64,000 nucleotides of DNA from contig CM022672.1 in NCBI GenBank assembly GCA_012295275.1, positions 33,976,001-34,040,000 of the forward strand, given 5' to 3'. Numbering within the stretch: the stretch's first letter is position 1; each line of letters opens with the position of its first letter. The DNA comes from Chrysomallon squamiferum (lineage: Eukaryota > Animalia > Mollusca). Positions 17,261 to 64,000 of the stretch are shown in pieces. The position numbers and the translations under genes are program-made. A model generated the notes under the pieces. It worked only from the letters and a program-made list of their open reading frames with translations. It was not told where the DNA came from and ran no database searches.

Positions 17261-19169
17261 CTGAATAAAATAAAATAAAAAATGTTTTATAAAAACTGTG
17301 ATTAAAAACATAAATTGTCTGCAAATTCTTCAGAAGGTTGTTATTTTTGAACAATAAAAGTTCAGACAGTATTTTTAAGATCTTGTCTACTCACTCTCGT
17401 AACATTAATTTCAGTATTTGTTTAAACTTGTCTACTCTCTCTCGTAACATTAATTTCAGTATTTTAAAAAAAACTTGTCTACTCACTCTTGTAACATTAA
17501 TTTCAGTACTTTTAAAAAACTTGTCTACTCACTCTTGTAACATTAATTTCAGTATTTGTTTAAACTTGTCTACTCACTCTTGTAACATTAATTTCAGTAC
17601 TTTTAAAAAACTTGTCTACTCACTCTTGTAACATTAATTTCAGTATTTGTTTAAACTTGTCTACTCACTCTTGTAACATTAATTTCAGTATTTTTAAAAA
17701 ACTTGTCTACTCACTCTTGTAACATTAATTTCAGTATTTTTAAAAAACTTGTCTAATCACTCTTGTAACATTAATTTCAGTATTTGTTTAAACTTGTCTA
17801 CTCACTCTTGTAACATTAATTTCAGTATTTTTAAAAAACTTGTCTACTCACTCTTGTAACATTAATTTCAGTACTTTTAAAAAACTTGTCTACTCACTCT
17901 TGTAACATTAATTTCAGTATTTTTAAAAAACTTGTCTACTCACTCTTGTAACATTAATTTCAGTATTTTTAAAAAACTTGTCTACTCATTCTCGTAACAT
18001 TAATTTCAGTACTTTTAAAAAACTTGTCTACTCACTCTGGTAACATTAATTTCAGTATTTTAAAAAAACTTGTCTACTCACTCTTGTAACATTAATTTCA
18101 GTACTTTTAAAAAACTTGTCTACTCTCTCGTAACATTAATTTTAGTACTTTTAAAAAACCTGTCTACTCACTCTCATAACATTAATTTCAGTATTTTTTA
18201 AAAACTTGTCTACTCACTCTCGTAACATTAATTTCAGTATTTTTCAAAAAAATTGTCTACTCACTCTGGTAATGTTAATTTCGGTAGTTAAAACCATAAC
18301 AAAATACTAACTACTCACTCTGGTAATGTTAATATCAGTATTTAAAAACAACAAAACCCTATCACTAGTAGTAGTAATGTGAATTTTGTTATTTAAAAAA
18401 CTTGTCTACTCACTCTGGTAATGTTAATTTTGTTATTTAAAACAAACTGGTCTACTCACTCTGGTAACGTTAATTTTGTTATTTAAAAACAACTGGTCTA
18501 CTCACTTTGGTAATGTTAATTTTGTTATTTAAAAACAAATGGTCTACTCACTCTGGTAATGTTAATTTTGTTATTTAAAACAAACTGGTCTACTCAATCT
18601 GGTGATGTTAATTTTGTTATTTAAAACAAACTGGTCTACTCTCTCTGGTAATGTTAATTTTGTTATTTAAAACAAACTTCTACTCACTCTGGTGATGTTA
18701 ATTTTGTTATTTAAAACAAACTTCTACTCACTCTGATGATGTTAATTTTGTTATTTAAAAACAAACTTCTTCTCACTCTGATGATGTTAATTTTGTTATT
18801 TAAAAACAAACATCTACTCACTCTGATGATGTTAATTTTGTTATTTAAAAACAAACTTCTACTCACTCTGATGATGTTAATTTTGTTATTTAAAAACAAA
18901 CATCTACTCACTCTGATGATGTTAATTTTGTTATTTAAAAACAAACTTCTACTCACTCTGATGATGTTAATTCCGGTCAGGTTTTCTACAACACTCGGCA
19001 GTTTCTCCATTATTCCCATCACTTCATTTGTCAGCTTCATCGCTCCAACTTCACCCTTTCCACTCGACACCATCGTCACCTTCTTGCACTTTGTCAATGG
19101 AGCAGAGATTTCTGCAGCCACCTGATGATGATAATAATAATAATAATAATAATGATGATAATAATAATA

Positions 19170-19233
<64 letters not shown>

Positions 19234-22200
19234 TGATAATGATAATAATAATAATAATAATAATAAAATAATAACAATGGTAATAATAATAAATGATAAT
19301 AATAATAATAATGATGATAATGATAATAATAATGATAATATTTATCTTTTGTTGATAACAGTAAGTAGATTACAATAAGAAATTATAACAAAATATTTGA
19401 CACAGTAGATCAATCAGTAATCCAAAGGAGAAACAACAATAATCCAAAAGCAATTAATAACATAGATTTTTTTTATTATAATAAAAACGATAAGTTTATA
19501 TTATATTTGAAAAAAGCAGAACAAAGCAATACAACATAATAAAAAACCAACATCTTTTAAAATTCTTGCACTGTAATAGTTCAAAACAGACCATTTTAAG
19601 TACCAAAATACAACACCACCACCAACAATATAACAAACAAATCCTTTTAAAGAAGATGGTAAAATCTGTATTATTATTTAAATTTAAATTTATAATAAAC
19701 AATATATCAGTTAATTAATTAACGTTATTGCAATTCCTGAAACATATCTGTACTAACAAAACATCTGTATGAATATTAATTAACTGATGCAGATGTCACT
19801 GATAATTGCCATGGTTACCTTTGGTAGAGTTTCCAGCACCATATCAACCATGGCAGCATCCTGGTAATCCTTCCAGGCATCAGCCTTCTTTGCCATCTGT
19901 TCTGCTTCTGCTCTTGCCTTGGCTTCAATAGCAAAAGCTTCAGCATCACCTTTCATCTGACAGAAAACAACCATTTTAATATTAAAAAAACCCAAATCCT
20001 TTTGGAGTATTTTCAACACAAAAACAAGACTTCTATTTATCATTTATTTTCCTTGCTAAACATTTGACTTCTACTTATTTTCTTTGTTAAAAGTTTGAAA
20101 AAAAAAAAAAAATCAATAAATAATAATATGTTACCATAATCCTTTCAGTTTCTGTTAGGTTTACAAATGTTTTATTTTCTTTTTCTTTTATTTTACAGCA
20201 GATATTTTGAAAACATAAACCACTTCTCTACAAAAGAATGTTTGAGGCAACTAACATGTTTTCTTTAAAATCTGTTACTTTTAACTATAGAACAGAAGAA
20301 TAATTTATTTTCTTTCAGTGTTTGTTGATCTGAAAACCCATTACAATCTTTAATTATCACAAAGTATAAGGATCTGTGAGTGTCTGGATGTGTGTGTATG
20401 AGTGCACATGTGAGACAAGATATAACAATGAGTACTGGTTAGAATGTGAAAAACAAAAGAAACATACTCTGACAGATTCAGATTCTGCTTCTGCTTCCAT
20501 AATAATACGCATTCTGAAAAAATAAACAGTTCAAACAGTTTTATAATTTTGTATAAACTCTTTAAAAAGTATTTCACAATTAAATTTATTGTACAATGAT
20601 TTACTTAATTATGTTGTTTTTTTGATGCACAAAATAACACCTATGAAAATAAAAACAATTTAATGGGATAAGAAAAAAGCAGATTTATTTCACTAACATA
20701 CTATCAAACTAGATTTGTTTCGTTAAAATACTAATAGAATATCTTTATATTTCACTAACACCAATATATGTCTCACTAACTCACTAACAAAGTAGATTTG
20801 TCTCCCTAACAAACTAACAAACTAGATTTATGTCTCACTAACATACTAACAGATTAGCTTTATGTCTCACTAACAAACTAACCTGTTGGCTTCGGCTATT
20901 TTTTCCAGCCGGTATTTCTCTGCCTCGGCAGGTTTGCGGACCTGAGCCTCGAGTTCGCGCTCCCTGCGGATGATTTCCTGTTCCTGAACCATGATCTGCT
21001 GAGCACGCTCCACAACTGTCACCTGCATCTGCTCCTCCCGAATTGCCTGCTTCGTCTTAGCAGCCTGGTTACACGTTCAAACAGTAACATTACGTTATAA
21101 TTTACAAAACTCATACATTTTTATATCATACACGAAAATGATAATTTTACGTTATACACGAAAATGATAATTTTACATTATACATGAAAATAATGATTTT
21201 ACATTATACTTCAAAAATAATAGTAGCATATTATACACTATAGTAATATTACATAATAATTTACAAAATTTTATAATATACATTTAAATAATAATTTAAC
21301 ATTATGCATTAAAATGACAATTTTACAATGTACTTTAAAATTATAATTTTGCATTACATACTTAAATATTTTCACATTATACACTAAAATAATAACTGTG
21401 CTTAGTTGAGCATAGATAACCTTTAATATGACATATGACATGATGTTTGATAACATATACATATATATATATTTATTTATTTATTTAAAATCATATTGTA
21501 ACACAACACAAGCCAAGCCAGTATTAACTTTAAGTCATAACAAACTGTTAATATATCAGTTTTCAGAAAAAACAATTACAGTATGAAATTACCTGTACTA
21601 AAAAGATGAAATTAAAAATTACTGGATTAATTATTATGCCACAGGTTTTCAGAAAATAAATAACTATTACAGTACGAGATCATATGGACCAATAAAACAA
21701 CAGTTCCACTGTGGGATCACCTTAAGCTGGCTTTAGATATAAAACAAGTATTTATTGTAAGTGTTTTAATAAAAAAAAAAAAAAAATAAATAAAAAGTGT
21801 GAGATTACTTGAAGAGCATAGGCCAGATCTGCCTGGGCTTTCTTGGTTTGAACTTCCTGGTCATAGAGAGCTTTCTTCAGGTGAAAATCTCTCTGAGATT
21901 TGGCAATCTCAATGTCATTAGCATACCTCGACTCCATTCTCTTTTCCTCTGCATAAGCTTCCTGCAAAATATTATAACATCAATTAATATTAATATACAC
22001 ACAGACTGTATTCATTTTGTTTTATTATTTTATATAAAACTGTTTAAAAAAAAAAATATATATATATATATTATTATGATTGACCATGATTTATTTTTGT
22101 ATAATAAATAAGTGTATATAATAATAATATTATTATTACTACACACAGCACTTTTTTTTTCTTCTTTTCTTTTTCTAATTTTAATATTACATTACATTTT

Positions 22201-24371
22201 ACACTTTCTTATAAGCCAATATGATTGGATGGCAGGTACTAGTTACAATGTATATTCTATTCTAACTGTAGTCTAATAAGGTTTTTTTCCTTATTATTTC
22301 CAGGACAGCCACTGTTGATAATCTGACTGATGTGGTTAGGTGAGTTTTTCACAGATATTACCAGTTAACGAATGTACAAGGACGTCTGCTTATGTTCTGT
22401 ACCTACAGCTTGGAAAATGTATGTCCTGCCACTGAACCTATTAAATGTAGGGACCTCAACATCAAAAATTATTTGAAATGAAAATCTGGAATTAAAACTG
22501 TTGGTTAGAATCTTTCAGAAAATACCAAAAGAAGCTTTAGCTGAACAGGAGTTTTGAAACATTTTTTTCAATTTTAAAATAAAAATAAATTCTAAAAGAT
22601 GATTGATTCAAGATGTGTTATCCTACGAGTGTCCAGTAAAGATAAATATCAGTGGTATTAGACAGTAATGGACATCTGTCCTTCACCTTGATTCCTGCAT
22701 CTCTTTGCGCTTCAGCTTCACCAATGCGTGCATCTCTCTTTACTTCTGCTGTCCTCTTCATTCCTAAAGCTTTCAAATATCCCTGTAAACACAGAAAATA
22801 TTCTTTTAAAATATTAATCCTCAATAAAATATTAAATTTAAATATCCCTGTAAACACTGTAAGTTATGATATACGTAAATATACCTGTAAATATTATTTT
22901 AAAAATGTTAATCCTCAATATCCCTGTAAACATACAAAATATTCTTTTAAAAATGTTAACCCTCAATATCCCTGTTACAGTAAAATGTAAATATCCCTGT
23001 AAACACAGAAAATATTCTTTTAAAAATGTTAACCCTCAATATTCCAGTAAAAGCAGTAAATTACAGAATATGTAAATATCCTTGTAACAGTAAAATTTAA
23101 ATATCCCCTGTAAACACAGAAAATATTCTTTTAAAAATATTAACCCTCAATATTCCAGTAAAAGCAGTAAGTTACAGTACATGTAAATATCCCTGTAACA
23201 GTAAAATTTAAATATCCCTGTAATTATAGAAAATATTGTTTTAAAATTATTAACCCTCAATATCCCTGTAATAGTAAAATTTAAATATCCCTGTAAACGC
23301 AAAAAATATTCTTTTAAAAATGTTAACCCTCAATATCCCTGTAAACGCAGTAAGTTATATATGTAAATATCCCTTTAACAGTAAAAATTGGAAATGTCCT
23401 TGTAAATATATAAATATCCATATACATGTATACAATAATGTAAGAAGATCTTCAATATTGTAAACACAGCAACATTAAAATACCCCTGTAAATATTAACA
23501 TCCTTGTAAACATAGTAACACTAAAATGTCTCTGTAAATCTAGTACCACTAAAACATCAGTAAAACAAAAATAATCTCTGTAAAGGTAGTAACAGTAAAA
23601 TCTCTTTGTAAACATATTAACATTAAATAAATAATTTCCGTAAATATATCTGATTTAAATTTCATGTGACAACAATGACAAGTATGTGTGTGTGAGCGAG
23701 TGTGTGTGTGTGTATATATATATATATTTAATGTGACAGAATATAACATCAGTGTTATACATACCTCTTCGTCTCTGACATCTTTCAGTGTGTAGCTAAC
23801 AACACAGATGCCCATGTTGACTAAGTCGGAGGATGCAACTTCAAACACAGCCTTGGAAAACTTCTTTCTGTCCTTGTAGATCTCCTACAACACACACAAC
23901 AACAACAAAAAAACATATTTAACAACCATATTTGTTCTGTGTCACCTGTCATAACTATTGTTTTCAAATCTCAGATGTTTCTCATTATCAAATCATCATA
24001 TATAGAGAGATGTGTAGTTTATATTTACACACACATTTGCCAATATTTGTACATGTGTGTGTGTGTGTGTGTGTGTGCACATAAATACAGAGAAATAGAT
24101 ATGCATATTTATCAAACACAATTGATATTTGTATTGTGTGTCATATATATATATCTGCCTATCTATCTATATTATTATCTATATCTGCATCTACCTATCT
24201 CTCTCTCTGTGTATTTATCACAAACACACAAACAAAAGTTGAAATAATGATTATACAGGTTAGAAGTGGAACATGGTATCTGTTCTTTGTGTAACTTGGA
24301 AACAGTTTTAATGGAAATGAACAAGAAAGCAAGAAGATGGAAAGATGAAATGTAGAAGTACTATCCAGAAA

Positions 24372-24404
<33 letters not shown>

Positions 24405-24905
24405 TATACAGATAGGTTTAACCTACATCATTAACTTTAACCTGCACATTAATCATTTTAACACACATATTATTAATTTTTACATACATGACATTTATTT
24501 GAAAGGCATAGATTTGTTTTTAAATTATTTACACAGTCAGAGGAGATTGTTTTTAATGTACCTCAACCGTCATGTTCCCCATAATTGCTCTCTGGTGACC
24601 TTCTAAAGTCTCCTGGGCCACAGAGCGAATTTCTCTTTCACTTTTGCCTAAGAAAAGTTCACATGCTGACCTAAGCATTTCCTGGTTTGACCCTTGAACT
24701 TTGACCTTATTAGCAAAAATCAAATCGTATTATTAATACATACATACATACATACATATTAATATTAAAAATACACTGATGTTATAATATACATTATTAT
24801 TTATATTAATAAAATATATATATCTAATATTCTGATAAATTACTTCATTATGGAGATAAAATTAATTATGAAAAAGTAAATTAATATGACAAGAAATAAT
24901 TAAAA

Positions 24906-24985
<80 letters not shown>

Positions 24986-27900
24986 ATTATATGTTGTTGC
25001 TTATAAGAAAGCCACATATAACCAAATAATCAATAACATGACTAATCACTGATACACAGTTGCGGATATTACAACACTGAACTGTAACAAGCTTTATACA
25101 TCAAATATAAATAGATTACACAAATATGCAGTGTTAAAACTAACCCTCTGTTTACCAGCCACCTGTCTATTAGCCATTTACTGTTACCCATCTTTTTGTT
25201 TTTAATTTTCATTTCTGACTTTCTGCACTAACTGATTCAGTAAGAGAGATACCATTGTGCCTTTCCAGTGTGTTTCATGTTTAGGTCTAAATGGGAATAC
25301 ACATTCCAATCTATCCATCCAAACACAAATATGTTTAAACTTACTTAGTCTTAGATATATCCGATTCATGTGGACATTGTAAATTTGTTATTTAAAAACA
25401 CGCATTTATTGTCTATATTTAACTGTAGTTTTACAAATGCTAAATCTTAACTGAAATTAATTATGCTATTGTTTTGACATATATATATATAGATATATAC
25501 AGGGTGAAAAATTCATGTTAATCTCCAAATTCGATTTGCTTGAACATAAAACATCCAAATCCATGTGGATTTGCATTAAATATTTCCAAAAATTTGATTA
25601 AATTGAATAATCAACGAGTAAAATGTAACTGAATTAAAAACAGAAACAGTCTCGTTATCAAAACATCAGTTTAAACTGGTTTCAAAAGCGTAGCATACAT
25701 TTGAATCTGTGTATGTTTGAAACATCATGGTTTATTGAGACTAGTCTTGCGAGAAGCCAAGTGCTGGTTGAACCAAATAGTCATTTAATGTGCCAAATTT
25801 GGTATTGTATCAGACATTTCTATGTCAGTTCATTGATATCATGTTTTCTAAATTAAATTTCCTGCTTATTTTGATCCATAAATTTGTTTTATTGGTTGCA
25901 GAAATTATAGTCCAATTACAAATAATTATTTTATTTACAGTGTTGAGCACATTCAATAAAAAGAAATGCCTAAAATAAAAACACATCTAATTACAGATAG
26001 TTCATTTTATTTCTTGTGCTGATCATATTAAATTAAAGAAAATTATATTTATATATATATCGTGGTACCTAGACTTGTGAGTTTAATTCGTTCTGTGACT
26101 GAGCTCATAACATAATTTGCATTAATCCGTTCCACCCCACCCACCCCCAGAAAATCACCCCATTTTTTTATATATTTTTTTAATAAATGACAAATATTGT
26201 ATAAAACAAAATAAAAGAGAATGTAAAGAAATAAATTGGTTTTTGTAAAGTGTATATATCATGGAGATCCAGACAAATGATTTTTACACCTTTGGCTGGA
26301 GTTAAAGCTTTAGTATGGTAGATATTATAGTACTGCGCTCATACTGCCTAGCCCAGTTGACTATATGCACACCTCACTCATGTTTTTCCATGATTTCATG
26401 GAAGTCATCTGTGTCTTCTTCTCTGCACTGTTCTTTGCATTCACTTTCTCAGAATCCAAGGTAAGAAAAAAGAAATTTGGCAGAACACAACAGAGATGCT
26501 TTCACAGCGAGGAAACAACGTGAAGTAAACATGTGAGACGAGGGATGCTGGCCGGATGTTATGTTGTTCATTGTGCCGATCAGTGTTGGTGTATCTCAAG
26601 CTTATTCATAACTCAGAAAACTCATAAGTCAAGGTACCATTGTATACATATATATATATATTAATTTGAATTACTTTAATCAGTTATTACTAATTTAGTC
26701 CCAGATTTGCATACTCAGATTTTTTTTAATGATATTCGTGAAATTATTAAAATTAAAATCAATTTGTGGTTATTTACTCTTTTTTTTTTTTTGACAAGTT
26801 GCGTAGATGTTTATCAGATGTTTGTTTTGTTTATTTACAAATAACCAGTGAGTTACTCACCTGAGCAATACCTGTAATGGCAATACCGACACCTAACTTT
26901 GTGTACACCTGGGGACTTTCAATGGTGAGAGTCATCGTATTGAGTGATAGCCTGAAAGAAAGCAGCATCACTCAAAACTGACGTCAGGTAAACTCAGGTA
27001 ACACAGGTGTAAAACAGGCAGATAATTAGAGTTTATGTTCATCTCTTGTTCTTTGAACCGTTGTAATATTAAATTTCTTTTCTCTCTCATGGGTTCTCAA
27101 CATTCTTTCATCGAGAAATGGAAAACATAATTTATAATAATACAAGATTCCTCGATTTTCTGAACTTCTTTCTACGCTTTGGAAATATTTAGGATTTTCA
27201 AATTATTTAGATTTTGAATTTTGAATTTTGAAATTTTCAGAGAATGAGTATAATAAGATAAATTTAGATTTCCGAATTCCTCAATCAGTATTAACAACCT
27301 TTATAGACAGGTGGCTGGTTTACAGTTACAGGTACTAATTTATTTATCTAAACATAAATTATTAATTAGATAAATAAAACTTTACAAAAACAGCTACTAA
27401 GACAGAACTCTAATTATATACATGTACAATTTTACACAAGTGTTATTCCCCATGCAACATTTTCAAAATGCCAAGCATCACTGACAAATATGGATCCCCA
27501 CTCAACAAAAGCAAAAAAAAAAAAAAACCACAAAAAATTTGAAAATGACAGATCAGAACTGGAAAATAAAAATAAATAAATAAATACGGATAAAATATCT
27601 ACATTAAGTAAATGTGTGAATCAAAGTAAATGTTTGTGTAATTTTATAAAACGTATTTTTTCTGTGTGTGTTTTAGTGATGCAAATGCATTTGCTTTTTT
27701 AATGATTAAGTATTTTAAGAGATTATATTCTTTTATATATATCTATATATATCTTTTTTTAACCTATAATCTGTAATGTTTAGTGATTTTTAAATTTATT
27801 TATTTTAAATTATTTTATTTGTTATTGTTTTTCACTCTGTTCTGATGTGATCTTTGCCAAACTTTTGGGGTGACAATTAAAACAAATGCGTATGTGTCAC

Positions 27901-28957
27901 ATCAAAGAAAACATTGTGCATGGCCTGCATGAGTGACTGAACCATGCAATGCCATGGGTGGGTGACTTACTTGTGCGATGCCAGTGACAGAAAGAGCCAC
28001 ACCCATCTGTGTGTATACATGAGGGATTTGTAATCTGAGGGTCATTAAGTTCAAGTTCAGTCTTTACAAAAAAACAAAAAGATTAATATGCACAGATTAG
28101 AGTTAAATTACTGTAAAAGTTAATCACAATATTTTTTTTTAGAGAGCCACGGACTTATGCATTTTACATGAAAAAAACATTTATATGTGTGTGCCTGTGT
28201 GTGTGTAAGGGGGACAAATAGTGGTATGTACAATGGATAAAATATTCTGAATGATCCAACCAGAAGCATATGAGCTATTAATTGTCACAATTTGTTTGGA
28301 AGTTGTAAAGAAAAGAAGCCATTAACTATGCAGAATGTGTCCTTATTTTCATTCTATGGGTTAGTCTTGGTAATAAAGGAACTTTCAATGGCCAAGCAGC
28401 ACATCTAACAGACATAATTTAACAGATTATATATATATATAAAGTTACAATAAAAGAAGTTGATAATTACCATAAAGATATAATGATTTCAGCAAGATTC
28501 TCATGACACAGATGACATTATTAGTTGTATTATCAATACGGTTATGGTTTCTCCTAAACTTATTTCAAACATTTGTACAATAATTTGTGTGTGTTTTAAG
28601 TAATTATTTTAAATACCTTGATGATCAATCTTTATTAACAATAAAATAATCCTAAGCTAATATTGTTTTATTTGTTTTCTATGTCATAATTAATCATTTT
28701 TCTATATTTTGTTATTTTTCCAGTTCTGGATGTGTCTCAAGGTTAAAGCTTGCTAACAGCTAAAAAGCAAAACATAAAATAAAGCTAGCATACATTGAAT
28801 ATGGAGTTGAGTAGGTTCACCATTACATAGACCCTGTGTACACCAACATTTTTTGTTTACAAACATATGAAACATGGTATGGACCATGTGAATAACAGTG
28901 TTATATATAGAGTAAATATGTTTGAGACCATTTGGTCATTTTCAGTATATATATATG

Positions 28958-29001
<44 letters not shown>

Positions 29002-31937
29002 AATATACAGATGAACAAAATGGCAGTATCTCAAAAATCTATCTACCTTTGAATTACCCTTAAAATTTCGTTCAAAACTCTCACTCTACACATACATACA
29101 TACGTAGACACACACACACACAAATTAGCCCCCCCTCAAAACCGTCATAAATTAAAAATCAAAACAGAACTTGAGTTTGGTCTTGTTTGTAAACAAAAGT
29201 TTGGTATATTCAGGGCATGAGTCTGTGATGCCCTGGCACAACTTACTTGTGCTATGCCTGTGACTGATACAGACACCCCATGTTTTGTGTAAACCTGGGG
29301 ACTCTCAATAGTTAGAGTCATAGTGTTCAACGTCATTCTTCACAAAAACAAAATAAATTAATTTAAAATAATAATAATTTAATTGAGAAATAAGAGAGAA
29401 AAAAAATTGATTTAATAAAATAATATATTGTTTGGCTTGTTAATTTAAGAGTAAATAATAAATATAATTAAAAAAAAACATTGTTTGGTTTATTAACTAA
29501 GATTAAATAAGAAATAACTTGGCTTATAAACAACTGTATTTTCAAATAAAAAAAATTAAATTAAAAAACATTTGTCTTGCTTTATATTTTTTGAAAAGCT
29601 ATTTGGCTTATTGAAGAATAATAACAAAACCACTAGGCTTATAAGTTACAAACAAATCTATTTTCAATAAAACAAATTAAAAAAATTTGAAGGAAAAAGA
29701 AAATTAATAGTTAAATAACTGGTCTTATAAAAACATCTATTTCCATTAAACTATTATAATAAAAATAAATTAATTTAAAAAATAAATAAAATATAGGGTT
29801 ATTAAATAAGAAATAACTTATAAACAATTCTATTTAAATAATCAAATATGTTGTATTTTGGTATATGTGTTTATATCCACTATAATTTACAGAGCTGTCA
29901 ATGTTTAAAATATTTCCAAATAAACCACACACACACTGTGTGTGTGTTATGTATGTATGTATCATTGTACGTATGTATATATGTTAATCTTATGTCATGG
30001 AACATTTTATTTTCTACAGCACTTATAATCATTTGGTACTAGTTAAGTCTGTATGTTTGTTTCTAATTAATATACTGTTTATTATATACATATATATTTT
30101 TATTTCTATGTTTTTTTAATTATGTCTCTTGATAACAGCTAATCATTACAACGATAATGAACTAATTATTAACTAAAATGTGTTCACCTCGTTAGTGTTA
30201 ACCTGTGTGCTTACATCTCACTTGTATAACGAATGTATTATTAATGTTAATTAATGTTCTTACCTTTGAAGCCGTTGAATACCTGGCCAAACGAAAACAC
30301 GCCCCCCAGGTATAAAAACCGACTGACCATGACAACACCCTGAAAAACAATAGATGGTAATGAACAGCTGGAGTCTAGTGATTAAAACAGTGGCTAACAC
30401 TGTGTCAGCTATTTTATATTTATTTCATACACACACAGAGAAGATTTAAAATAATAATAATAATTAAAAAAATAATATAAAATAAACAAACAATGATGGC
30501 TGTTTATTTCCTATTCCAAATTTTTTTTAAAAAGAAAGGCTTTGGTAATATCATTTATACAGTTAATTGCTGCTTGTTAATCAGCATCTTTGTTTTATAT
30601 AAAAAATACCAGAACATTTCTATCAATTTTCTAAAAAGAATTTTGGAAAACAACATGATTATAAACACTTGAATTAAACCCACCGGAGGTAAAAATTACA
30701 TACAACTCGTTTGTTTTGTGCCATGGTTTGATAATTTATTTATTTATAACACAAGGTATGATAACTGTTTTGTGGGCATTTCATTTCATGTCATTGTTTT
30801 CCATGTAAAATACACAGAGCCCCTTACATGGGTTCTATTTTCACTAGGAATGAATGCTACTTAGAATTAACTTAAGTTACTTTGTTTCATTATGAAATAT
30901 TACCGAGTATTTTCTGTTTCTGACATTCTGTATAGAGTATGGAAATGAACCATGATTTTTATTTATCTTTCCCCACATTTATTATTAAAATTATTTTTGT
31001 TGCTGTGTGGCTGTTCTTTTTGTCATGATTATAAATATAGAAAAACATTAAGAGTTTACTTCAAAGGAAACGTTTTCATATATATTCGTTTAATTATTCA
31101 TCTGATTTATTTTATTATGAGTTTTGCAATATTTTATATAACATCACATGCTGCCATTGATAAAGTTATAGTGTAATGATCATAATGCAATGGTGCTTTA
31201 ATAAAATGAGTGGAAAAAAAGAAAGCAAACCGCACAATCCCAACAATATTTATATAAACAGTTTTATATTTGTAAATTGTAATTTGTATTAAAATTTAAA
31301 TTCTATTTAATACCTTTGTTAGATCAATACCATTAGCATCTAATTTGTAACTATGTTATACATTGTAGAACAACATCAATACATCAAAGTAATAAATATT
31401 TATTATTGCGCAATATTAAATTATAACTGGAGTTGGTACATTTCGCAATATGTCAAATGTATTACGCAAAAATTATAAACATACCGATTGAAAAAAAAAA
31501 ATATGATAATAACTTGTATTATTAACTAAATACCACCCTGAAAAACATGTAAATATATGATCGAAATTTTTAATAAAGGTTTTTTTTTTTTTTTTAACAT
31601 GAACTGATGAAATGTAAATAAACATTTCTTAAATATCTTTCGACGTATTTTTTTTTTTCATTGTGAATGCTGTCTTAAAATATGCAGGGAATAACGATTA
31701 TTTAGTAAATAAAGCGATGAAAATAAAAATGTAATTATTGCATTCACAACAAAACCACTGTGTTTGACATTACCAGGCGTATCTAATTGATCGCGAGGCT
31801 GATACAATTCAAGGCCATTCATCGTTACGAACCGAGAAACGAAATCGGCCATTAATATCCACAACCGTACGTGCATAAAATGTATACAGACCTGACACGA
31901 CCATTACTTCATTCGGTCCACACGTTTCAAAGCCCAT
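17231..31937 (-). CDS. FLOT1: Flotillin-1 (SPFH/band-7 family), 12 coding exons, 428 aa
   Basis: Exons 31892-31937, 30264-30339, one of [29247-29337 / 27971-28061 / 26861-26951], 24562-24705, 23765-23884, 22687-22782, 21809-21961, 20883-21064, 20468-20513, 19819-19956, 18957-19121, 17231-17260. All are GT-AG and phase-consistent, totalling 1287 nt. Motifs [43 protein letters not shown] and [10 protein letters not shown] match FLOT1. Confidence 0.96.
17383..18970 (-). repeat. ~45-bp minisatellite (about 35 copies) built from the exon-11 donor (ATTAACATCATCAGA|GTGAGTAG), filling most of the last flotillin intron
   Basis: The + strand core CTACTCACTCT recurs every 44-46 bp; the unit nearest the exon overlaps the last five codons (INIIR). 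Confidence 0.95.
18957..19121 (-). CDS. FLOT1: Flotillin-1 exon 11 (VAAEISAPL...LTGINIIR)
   Basis: CAG acceptor, AGA|GTGAGT donor; matches the FLOT1 C-terminus. Confidence 0.92.
19819..19956 (-). CDS. FLOT1: Flotillin-1 exon 10 ([25 protein letters not shown]...LETLPK)
   Basis: GT-AG bounded, 138 nt. Confidence 0.95.
20468..20513 (-). CDS. FLOT1: Flotillin-1 exon 9 ([15 protein letters not shown])
   Basis: GT-AG bounded, 46 nt, phase 2 to 0. Confidence 0.92.
20685..20882. repeat. Degenerate repeat (GATTTATGTCTCACTAACAAACTAAC) abutting the exon-8 donor
   Basis: Repeated ACTAAC (GTTAGT on the gene strand, the same hexamer as the real donor). Confidence 0.7.
20883..21064 (-). CDS. FLOT1: Flotillin-1 exon 8 ([15 protein letters not shown]...[17 protein letters not shown])
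   Basis: GT-AG bounded, 182 nt; absent from the supplied ORF track. Confidence 0.95.
21809..21961 (-). CDS. FLOT1: Flotillin-1 exon 7 ([11 protein letters not shown]...[10 protein letters not shown])
   Basis: GT-AG bounded, 153 nt. Confidence 0.95.
22687..22782 (-). CDS. FLOT1: Flotillin-1 exon 6 ([32 protein letters not shown])
   Basis: GT-AG bounded, 96 nt. Confidence 0.95.
22775..23540 (-). repeat. Compound minisatellite containing about 12 copies of the exon-6 acceptor (TTACAG|GGATATT)
   Basis: The + strand motif AATATCCCTGTAA recurs near 22776, 22841, 22917, 22967, 22990, 23100, 23187, 23211, 23259, 23284 and 23332, decaying distally. Confidence 0.9.
23765..23884 (-). CDS. FLOT1: Flotillin-1 exon 5 ([40 protein letters not shown])
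   Basis: GT-AG bounded, 120 nt. Confidence 0.95.
24562..24705 (-). CDS. FLOT1: Flotillin-1 exon 4 ([11 protein letters not shown]...[17 protein letters not shown])
   Basis: GT-AG bounded, 144 nt. Confidence 0.95.
26061..26642. mobile_element. Non-autonomous Tc1/mariner-superfamily (pogo/Tigger-like) MITE, about 580 bp
   Basis: Imperfect TIRs GTGGTACCTAGACTTGTGAGTTT and AAACTCATAAGTCAAGGTACCAT, flanked by TA runs; resembles CAGTGGTACCT-type TIRs; no transposase ORF. Confidence 0.65.
26861..26951 (-). CDS. FLOT1: Flotillin-1 mutually exclusive exon 3c ([30 protein letters not shown])
   Basis: 91 nt, CTTTCAG acceptor, CAG|GTGAGT donor, phase 2 to 0, no stops. Confidence 0.92.
27971..28061 (-). 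CDS. FLOT1: Flotillin-1 mutually exclusive exon 3b ([30 protein letters not shown])
   Basis: 91 nt, poly-T plus GTAAAG acceptor, CAA|GTAAGT donor, phase 2 to 0, no stops. Confidence 0.88.
29247..29337 (-). CDS. FLOT1: Flotillin-1 mutually exclusive exon 3a ([30 protein letters not shown])
   Basis: 91 nt, T-rich plus GTGAAG acceptor, CAA|GTAAGT donor, phase 2 to 0, no stops. Confidence 0.9.
30264..30339 (-). CDS. FLOT1: Flotillin-1 exon 2 ([26 protein letters not shown])
   Basis: GT-AG bounded, 76 nt; GGRVFV motif. Confidence 0.95.
31892..31937 (-). CDS. FLOT1: Flotillin-1 exon 1 coding part ([15 protein letters not shown])
   Basis: ATG at 31937 in an AAAATGG context; G|GTCTGT donor. Confidence 0.93.
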
Positions 31938-52282: not shown

Positions 52283-63995
<11,713 letters not shown>

Positions 63996-64000
63996 CTGAA

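Follow-up and report, generated by a model that had tools for sequence, protein, structure and literature searches.

The flotillin-1 gene of Chrysomallon squamiferum carries three tandem copies of its third coding exon (3a, 3b and 3c), and only one of them at a time fits the reading frame. The cluster is real, belongs to a known class and is not special to this genome. With 3c the copy spliced in the sampled RNA, we consider it probable that 3a and 3b serve as minor, tissue-restricted alternatives that alter the packing of an SPFH2 hairpin on the hinge of the flotillin cage. Use of all three copies in this snail is likely. In what follows, the window is the whole stretch of DNA that was analyzed (64 kb), and positions are those of the window.

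The gene lies on the minus strand (Table 1) and is flotillin-1, the identity given in the original prediction and borne out by homology searches with exon 3a, by tblastn and by the match of a relative's protein to human FLOT1. Exon 3a alone matches human flotillin-1 with an E value of 2e-7 and flotillin-2 with 0.57. The closest named protein among our searches is flotillin-1 of Gigantopelta aegis (92% over exon 4, 28/30 over 3c). This protein (P0022) scores E 2e-173 with human FLOT1 and 7e-110 with FLOT2, and the window exons, 3a and 3b excepted, are 82–100% identical to it. Its architecture of SPFH1, SPFH2 and coiled coil, assessed in full-length tests on the Gigantopelta protein, is likewise nearer to FLOT1 than to FLOT2.

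Table 1. Flotillin-1 exons and the arms of a candidate RNA pairing in the window
Feature	Position	Strand	Remarks
Flotillin-1 coding exons 1-11	18957..31937	-	from 31937 down to at least 18957; tblastn with relatives and frame joining; last exon not located
Coding exon 1	31892..31937	-	46 nt; ATG at 31937
Exon 2	30264..30339	-	76 nt; ends in phase 2; 3′ end spliced to 3c in RNA contigs
Exon 3a	29247..29337	-	91 nt; Met/Lys-type class (first copy in gastropods and bivalves)
Exon 3b	27971..28061	-	91 nt; fastest-evolving copy, without clear orthologue
Exon 3c	26861..26951	-	91 nt; copy spliced in sampled RNA
Exon 4	24562..24705	-	144 nt; phase 0; common downstream exon
Exon 6	22687..22782	-	96 nt; begins with the Gly-Tyr of the hinge; one copy in the window, duplicates in many relatives
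Upstream arm of perfect 17-bp inverted repeat (candidate selector)	27303..27319	-	intron 3b-3c; beyond a 2x2 mismatch the pairing continues to 27325
Downstream arm of the same repeat (candidate docking site)	25154..25170	-	intron 3c-exon 4

Each copy is stop-free, has an AG acceptor and runs from phase 2 to phase 0; the homology, common length, intact splice sites and encoded peptides given in the original prediction all stand. Pairwise DNA identity among the three is 60, 60 and 54 of 91 bases, and tblastn with the proteins of five relatives against the window returned no fourth copy. The donors of 3a, 3b and 3c (GTAAGT, GTAAGT and GTGAGT) fit the U2-type consensus. The introns between the copies measure 1185 and 1019 nt and have branch-like motifs near their acceptors. 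As had been claimed, the flanks of 3a and 3c are unrelated; the acceptor regions of 3a and 3b are weakly alike over ~25 nt. The statement that 3a and 3c differ at most third positions holds for the whole exon (20/30) but not for the 16-residue common stretch to which it referred, where half of them differ (8/16).

Several other features were seen in the window. The stretch 17367–18972 holds ~40 tandem units of 45–46 nt; the array begins where exon 11 ends, and its units copy the donor site of that exon. Tandem repeats of 73–183 nt also occur in the intron upstream of exon 6 (22965–23414), and their units contain an acceptor-like motif that exon 6 has too. In intron 3c-4, the arms of an imperfect inverted repeat of 77 nt enclose a high-depth repeat (26019–26683); the whole is probably a small non-autonomous transposon. 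From ~52400 to 64000 the minus strand holds exons of what we take, from motifs in the ORF list, to be a receptor-type tyrosine phosphatase with cysteine-rich EGF-like repeats.

The frame rule was examined by joining exons 1–11 by coordinates in a script with every combination of exon-3 copies. With one copy, whichever it is, the frame stays open for 419 codons up to the end of exon 11. All five other combinations stop by codon 113: at codon 60 with no copy, at 82–113 with two and at 108 with three. The proposal that inclusion of none, two or three copies breaks the frame, so that one must be used, is thus upheld. In every such join the stop precedes codon 114 of a message with 11 exons, so double inclusion or skipping would be expected to be removed by nonsense-mediated decay, which the accessible text of PMC5740500 lists as acting on wrong joins in 60% of human clusters.

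The copies also bear the marks of coding constraint. Across the three pairs, pN/pS is 0.24/0.66, 0.16/0.86 and 0.26/0.81 (Fisher p 1.5e-3, 4e-9 and 7e-6), and exon GC is 43–44%, compared with 20–30% in the introns; together these argue that the cluster is not due to chance. Sixteen residues are common to all three copies amid many synonymous changes, and the synonymous sites of 3a versus 3c are saturated. Private amino-acid changes number 1 in 3a, 2 in 3c and 7 in 3b, one of the latter being an Ile at a Ser that varies in just 2/26 species. When neutral decay of 3b was simulated over 0.4–0.78 substitutions per site, an intact and similarly alike exon was left in ≤0.8% of 20,000 runs; with 0.2 substitutions per site of recent neutral change, 17–20% of runs still left one (p 0.17–0.20). 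The view that these are old copies under purifying selection is therefore sustained, with pN well below pS in all pairs and versions present in relatives. Selection appears clear for 3a and 3c; for 3b the substitution pattern suggests long-term constraint with a possible recent relaxation.

RNA data consisted of assembled contigs, which drop rare variants, from four runs of one study compared over 24500–27770, a span that takes in 3c and exon 4 and lies outside 3a and 3b. The joint between 3c and exon 4 is present in all four runs, and loose ends beyond 3c (behind 26953) read the end of exon 2, again in 4/4. By the criterion given in the accessible part of PMC5740500, each copy of a mutually exclusive exon has junction reads to both flanking exons; for 3c, junctions on both sides were found in every run. 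Neither 3a nor 3b sequence occurs at the exon-4 acceptor among the 24 listed of 64 loose ends. Since contig depth over 3c roughly equals that over exon 4, 3c appears to be the main form and any alternatives minor in those samples. Intronic contigs of all four runs end at 25147–25162 (near 25150), at the downstream arm of the 17-bp repeat, which is possibly an artefact of one study with filtered records and is given no weight here.

Relatives were collected by two protein searches and two cluster look-ups, and the exon-3 segment was cut from each protein. Exon-3 versions with otherwise matching flanks occur in 24/49 named mollusc species (gastropods, bivalves and octopods), with 2–5 versions each, as counted from automatic NCBI models irrespective of read support; this number is a floor because 14 of the 49 were represented by one protein. 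The species count leaves out pooled cestode and Schistosoma rows, Nucella (two genes), a second Babylonia gene and unnamed proteins. Eight molluscs have three or more versions: Haliotis rufescens 5, Mya and Mercenaria 4 each, and H. asinina, H. cracherodii, Mytilus californianus, Ruditapes and Sinanodonta 3 each. Most gastropod models have two. Outside molluscs, the nemertean Lineus has 6 versions and the brachiopod Lingula 3, and two hemichordates vary exons 2 and 3 together. A single version is found in all 24 proteins from six oyster species, which indicates that loss of the cluster is tolerated, as well as in flatworms and chelicerates; both Gigantopelta models use only the c-type exon. 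The novelty suggested in the original prediction thus largely falls away, given the 2–6 versions already modelled in molluscs, a nemertean and a brachiopod. We found no published account of an invertebrate FLOT1 exon cluster in the literature within reach, which excludes most subscription papers; nothing that bears on it was seen in PMC6429586.

Tandem copies are also visible in genomic DNA. The 18 metagenome loci examined included no genomic DNA of molluscs, and five of them (L014–L018) were set aside as chance matches. Contigs L002 and L010 each hold two tandem 91-nt exon-3 copies with AG/GT borders, and L010 additionally carries two copies each of exons 4 and 6. Exon 6 has two versions, differing around R168, in 20/49 molluscs (Babylonia and Nucella dropped as two-gene cases); it is single in the window, and Gigantopelta and many other molluscs have two. 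Duplications in flotillin-1 thus involve exons 3, 4 and 6 in L010 (4725–9215), exons 4 and 6 in Dimorphilus, and exon 2 in Lingula, Opisthorchis and two hemichordates (source entries L010 4725–9215, L002 2147–2726 and proteins P0001, P0185–P0212 and P0187/P0277). The Octopus models P0147 and P0151 join exon 2 in another frame straight to exon 4, which suggests skipped forms in octopus RNA.

In a tree built on the 30 exon columns, 3a falls in a 29-row group of Met/Lys-type copies from gastropods, bivalves and octopods, with weak support (86/78), and the partner of 3c is Gigantopelta (99/94). Among the copies, 3b has the longest branch (end branch 1.02); it has no clear partner, and its best match is 22/30. 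Most forks are open and the bootstrap is unsettled, so no order of duplications is drawn. Versions modelled for abalone, whelks and heterobranch snails (Lymnaea, Aplysia) agree with exon 3a at 26–27 of 30 residues, and read-through models of Plakobranchus, Elysia crispata and Mytilus edulis put the Met-type copy first, as in the window. A protein search with 3b and its flank gave two candidates and no match, a weak search that carries no weight either way.

Exon 3 corresponds to human FLOT1 residues 41–70 (mollusc 42–71). In the available text of PMC11775717 and bioRxiv 10.1101/2024.05.09.593390, the membrane-inserted SPFH1 spans residues 1–43 and SPFH2 residues 43–160, by which SPFH1 holds only 3/30 exon-3 residues and the rest belong mostly to an SPFH2 beta-hairpin. 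Structure prediction for the Gigantopelta protein places a strand at 47–57, a turn at 58–62 and a strand at 63–74 (63–71 within the exon), the model (pLDDT 72, pTM 0.34) being used for local secondary structure only. Among the 26 species with multiple versions, within-species variation falls at positions 59 and 60 in 25 of them, at 55 in 23, at 42 in 21, at 54 in 19 and at 50 in 17; no such variation occurs at V56, G61, G68, A70 and Q71. Variation is greatest at the tip of the SPFH2 hairpin (mollusc 59–60, human 58–59), adjoining V61 and I63. These two residues are described in the accessible part of PMC13000311 as lying in a hydrophobic core around Tyr160, at the hinge between SPFH2 and CC1, and phosphomimic changes at the Tyr160 hinge are reported there to abolish the cage. 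The subunit labels in that V61/I63 list appear reversed; the residue numbers fit FLOT1 in our alignment. Exon 6 begins at the hinge Gly-Tyr and carries L161, L164 and R168.

The suggestion that three isoforms would present different membrane-proximal surfaces is, on these domain limits, mostly wrong. The variants would instead keep the fold and change exposed residues, chiefly at the hairpin tip beside the packing of V61 and I63 around Tyr160, and from this position they may tune cage assembly, opening or partner contacts. We infer that exon-3 swaps act on the hinge and the exposed face of SPFH2 and not on membrane insertion, the link to the hinge coming from the available text of one paper (PMC13000311).

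How one copy might be chosen was approached through the introns. Ordinary GT donors and introns longer than 1 kb make exclusion by the minor spliceosome or by steric hindrance unlikely, and neither minor-class donors nor a very short intron between copies was found in the window cluster. The introns do contain one strong candidate for RNA pairing, the perfect 17-bp inverted repeat of Table 1, whose predicted helix would loop out 3c (2132 nt) as a competing exon. Its GC-rich arms are unique in the window: a search allowing up to 3 mismatches returned just these two matches in 64 kb (0.04 expected). The energy of the helix is equalled by 0/200 block shuffles, and among 21 stretches of the window the helix ranks first (-32.2, against -14.7 to -21.0). 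By analogy to insect docking sites, 3b might be switched on when intron 3b-3c pairs with intron 3c-4 and 3c is looped out.

No other element of such a system emerged. A second selector for the docking arm is absent from intron 3a-3b (16/60 shuffles as good), no significant partner competing for one docking site is present in intron 3a-3b or intron 2, and no selector for the choice of 3a was found within the window. The 40 nt that follow the donors of 3a and 3b have no significant docking site in common (shuffles did as well in 9/60 and 13/60 cases), a result that also covers an 8-nt motif behind both donors with a complement near 26375–26382. Hairpins after the three donors are weak (z -0.9 to -2.0), and a 12-bp helix between 28505–28516 and 26404–26415, which would loop out 3b and 3c, is within the shuffle range. 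Neither L002 nor L010 has a significant comparable helix (6–50 of 60 shuffles as good). In the absence of a second selector for 3a, and with the arms seen in one sequence, we put the chances that the 17-bp repeat acts in choosing the exon at about even.

An evenly balanced alternative is that the cluster is real and the repeat is a small transposable-element remnant or a chance pairing, with the choice made by splice-site strength, proteins and decay alone. The lack of a second selector and the MITE-like inverted repeat in the same intron speak for it. Against it are the uniqueness, GC content and perfect 17 bp of the arms and their placement across the last exon, like that of known downstream docking sites in the accessible text of PMC6071210; no target-site duplication is evident by eye at the arms. 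The same pairing bears on whether 3b still works. A two-way switch between 3a and 3c, with 3b a once-used copy that is now relaxed or silent, would match the two versions of most gastropod models, the long branch, private changes and missing orthologue of 3b, and the simulated recent neutral phase. We nevertheless regard it as unlikely, as 3b keeps its exact length, both splice sites, the 16 common residues and an exon-like GC content, and the sole strong RNA pairing found would serve 3b specifically.

It is very improbable that only 3c is used and that 3a and 3b are silent relics of old exon duplications. The RNA contigs, with 3c junctions alone seen in 4/4 runs, the c-type-only Gigantopelta models and the single version of the oysters are in its favor, but a relic is hard to reconcile with a copy such as 3a, which has one private change, synonymous sites saturated relative to 3c and near-identity to versions modelled in relatives. 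That the copies are an assembly artefact of collapsed or expanded haplotypes can be practically dismissed, since they differ at 31–37 of 91 bases, their introns are unrelated and the intronic DNA around 3c is matched, with few differences, by contigs from the RNA libraries.

The counterpart in humans is FLOT2. In the accessible tables of PMC8373072, a tandem duplicated exon of FLOT2 is listed as event 77, with two 91-nt exons of 30 residues, dated to Chordata and with proteomic support; PMC9741552, as far as available, marks the pair as nervous-tissue specific. The pair falls in exactly this exon, which confirms the statement in the original prediction that vertebrate FLOT2 has a two-exon alternative in this region. 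The transcripts of event 77 (ENST00000394908 and ENST00000585169; PMC8373072, PMC9741552) are the same two reported to switch in sepsis in the available text of PMC9205547. FLOT1 has no row in the human tandem-exon tables seen in PMC8373072 and PMC9741552, so the FLOT1 and FLOT2 duplications look independent. A single vertebrate-type FLOT2 representative was present among the 32 inspected members of the cluster look-up. Between the solved chains, 9L3G_a and 9BQ2_A, the homologous FLOT2 segment is the only difference, and the main text, as available, of either cage paper (PMC13000311; bioRxiv 10.1101/2024.05.09.593390) or of the review PMC11775717 makes no mention of isoforms or splicing. As the two published cages contain different FLOT2 versions, a choice that passes without remark, the mollusc variants can help to ask about the role of the neural FLOT2 isoform, which is unstudied.

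The cluster in itself is unsurprising, given that exon swaps of this tandem kind form a well-known, functionally rich class and that database models already include this one. Its value is comparative: the two subunits of a single cage have each had the same 91-nt exon duplicated, and in different phyla. The lophotrochozoan swaps of exons 3 and 6 fall on two halves of the Tyr160 hinge that, according to the accessible text on the cage, controls its assembly. A tentative and rather doubtful extension would be that the hinge is a splice-tuned module reached twice: chordates would swap the SPFH2 hairpin exon in FLOT2, and lophotrochozoans the same exon in FLOT1 (up to 5–6 versions) together with exon 6, on which Tyr160 and the contact with the tyrosine of the partner lie. 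A single gene could then supply cages with different thresholds for assembly or phospho-release; in the snail, the divergent 3b would be selected by an RNA bridge of 2 kb.

Comparison with known systems places the window gene among several of them. In the flotillin-1/2 44-mer cage (PDB 9BQ2, 9L3G; PMC13000311), the protein of its relative Gigantopelta matches human FLOT1 best, and by predicted fold the same chains rank first. The insect clusters with a downstream docking site (14-3-3zeta, Mhc and MRP1, along with a bidirectional model for srp; PMC6071210, as available) likewise have tandem exons, and in them too a long-range helix would join an internal intron to the one behind the cluster and loop out the last copy. 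The window differs from them in that a single selector was found for three exons, with arms predicted from pairing. The NCBI models named flotillin-1-like isoform X1 to X8 (Haliotis, Mytilus, Mya, Mercenaria, Ruditapes, Octopus, Lineus, Lingula) represent the same gene with the same exon swapped in 2–6 versions, and 3a matches their Met/Lys class; unlike the window, they have no counterpart of 3b and many also swap exon 6. Human FLOT2 shares with the window the same exon by position, its 91 nt and 30 residues and the homologous segment of the protein, but has two copies, whereas the snail carries three in the paralogue FLOT1.
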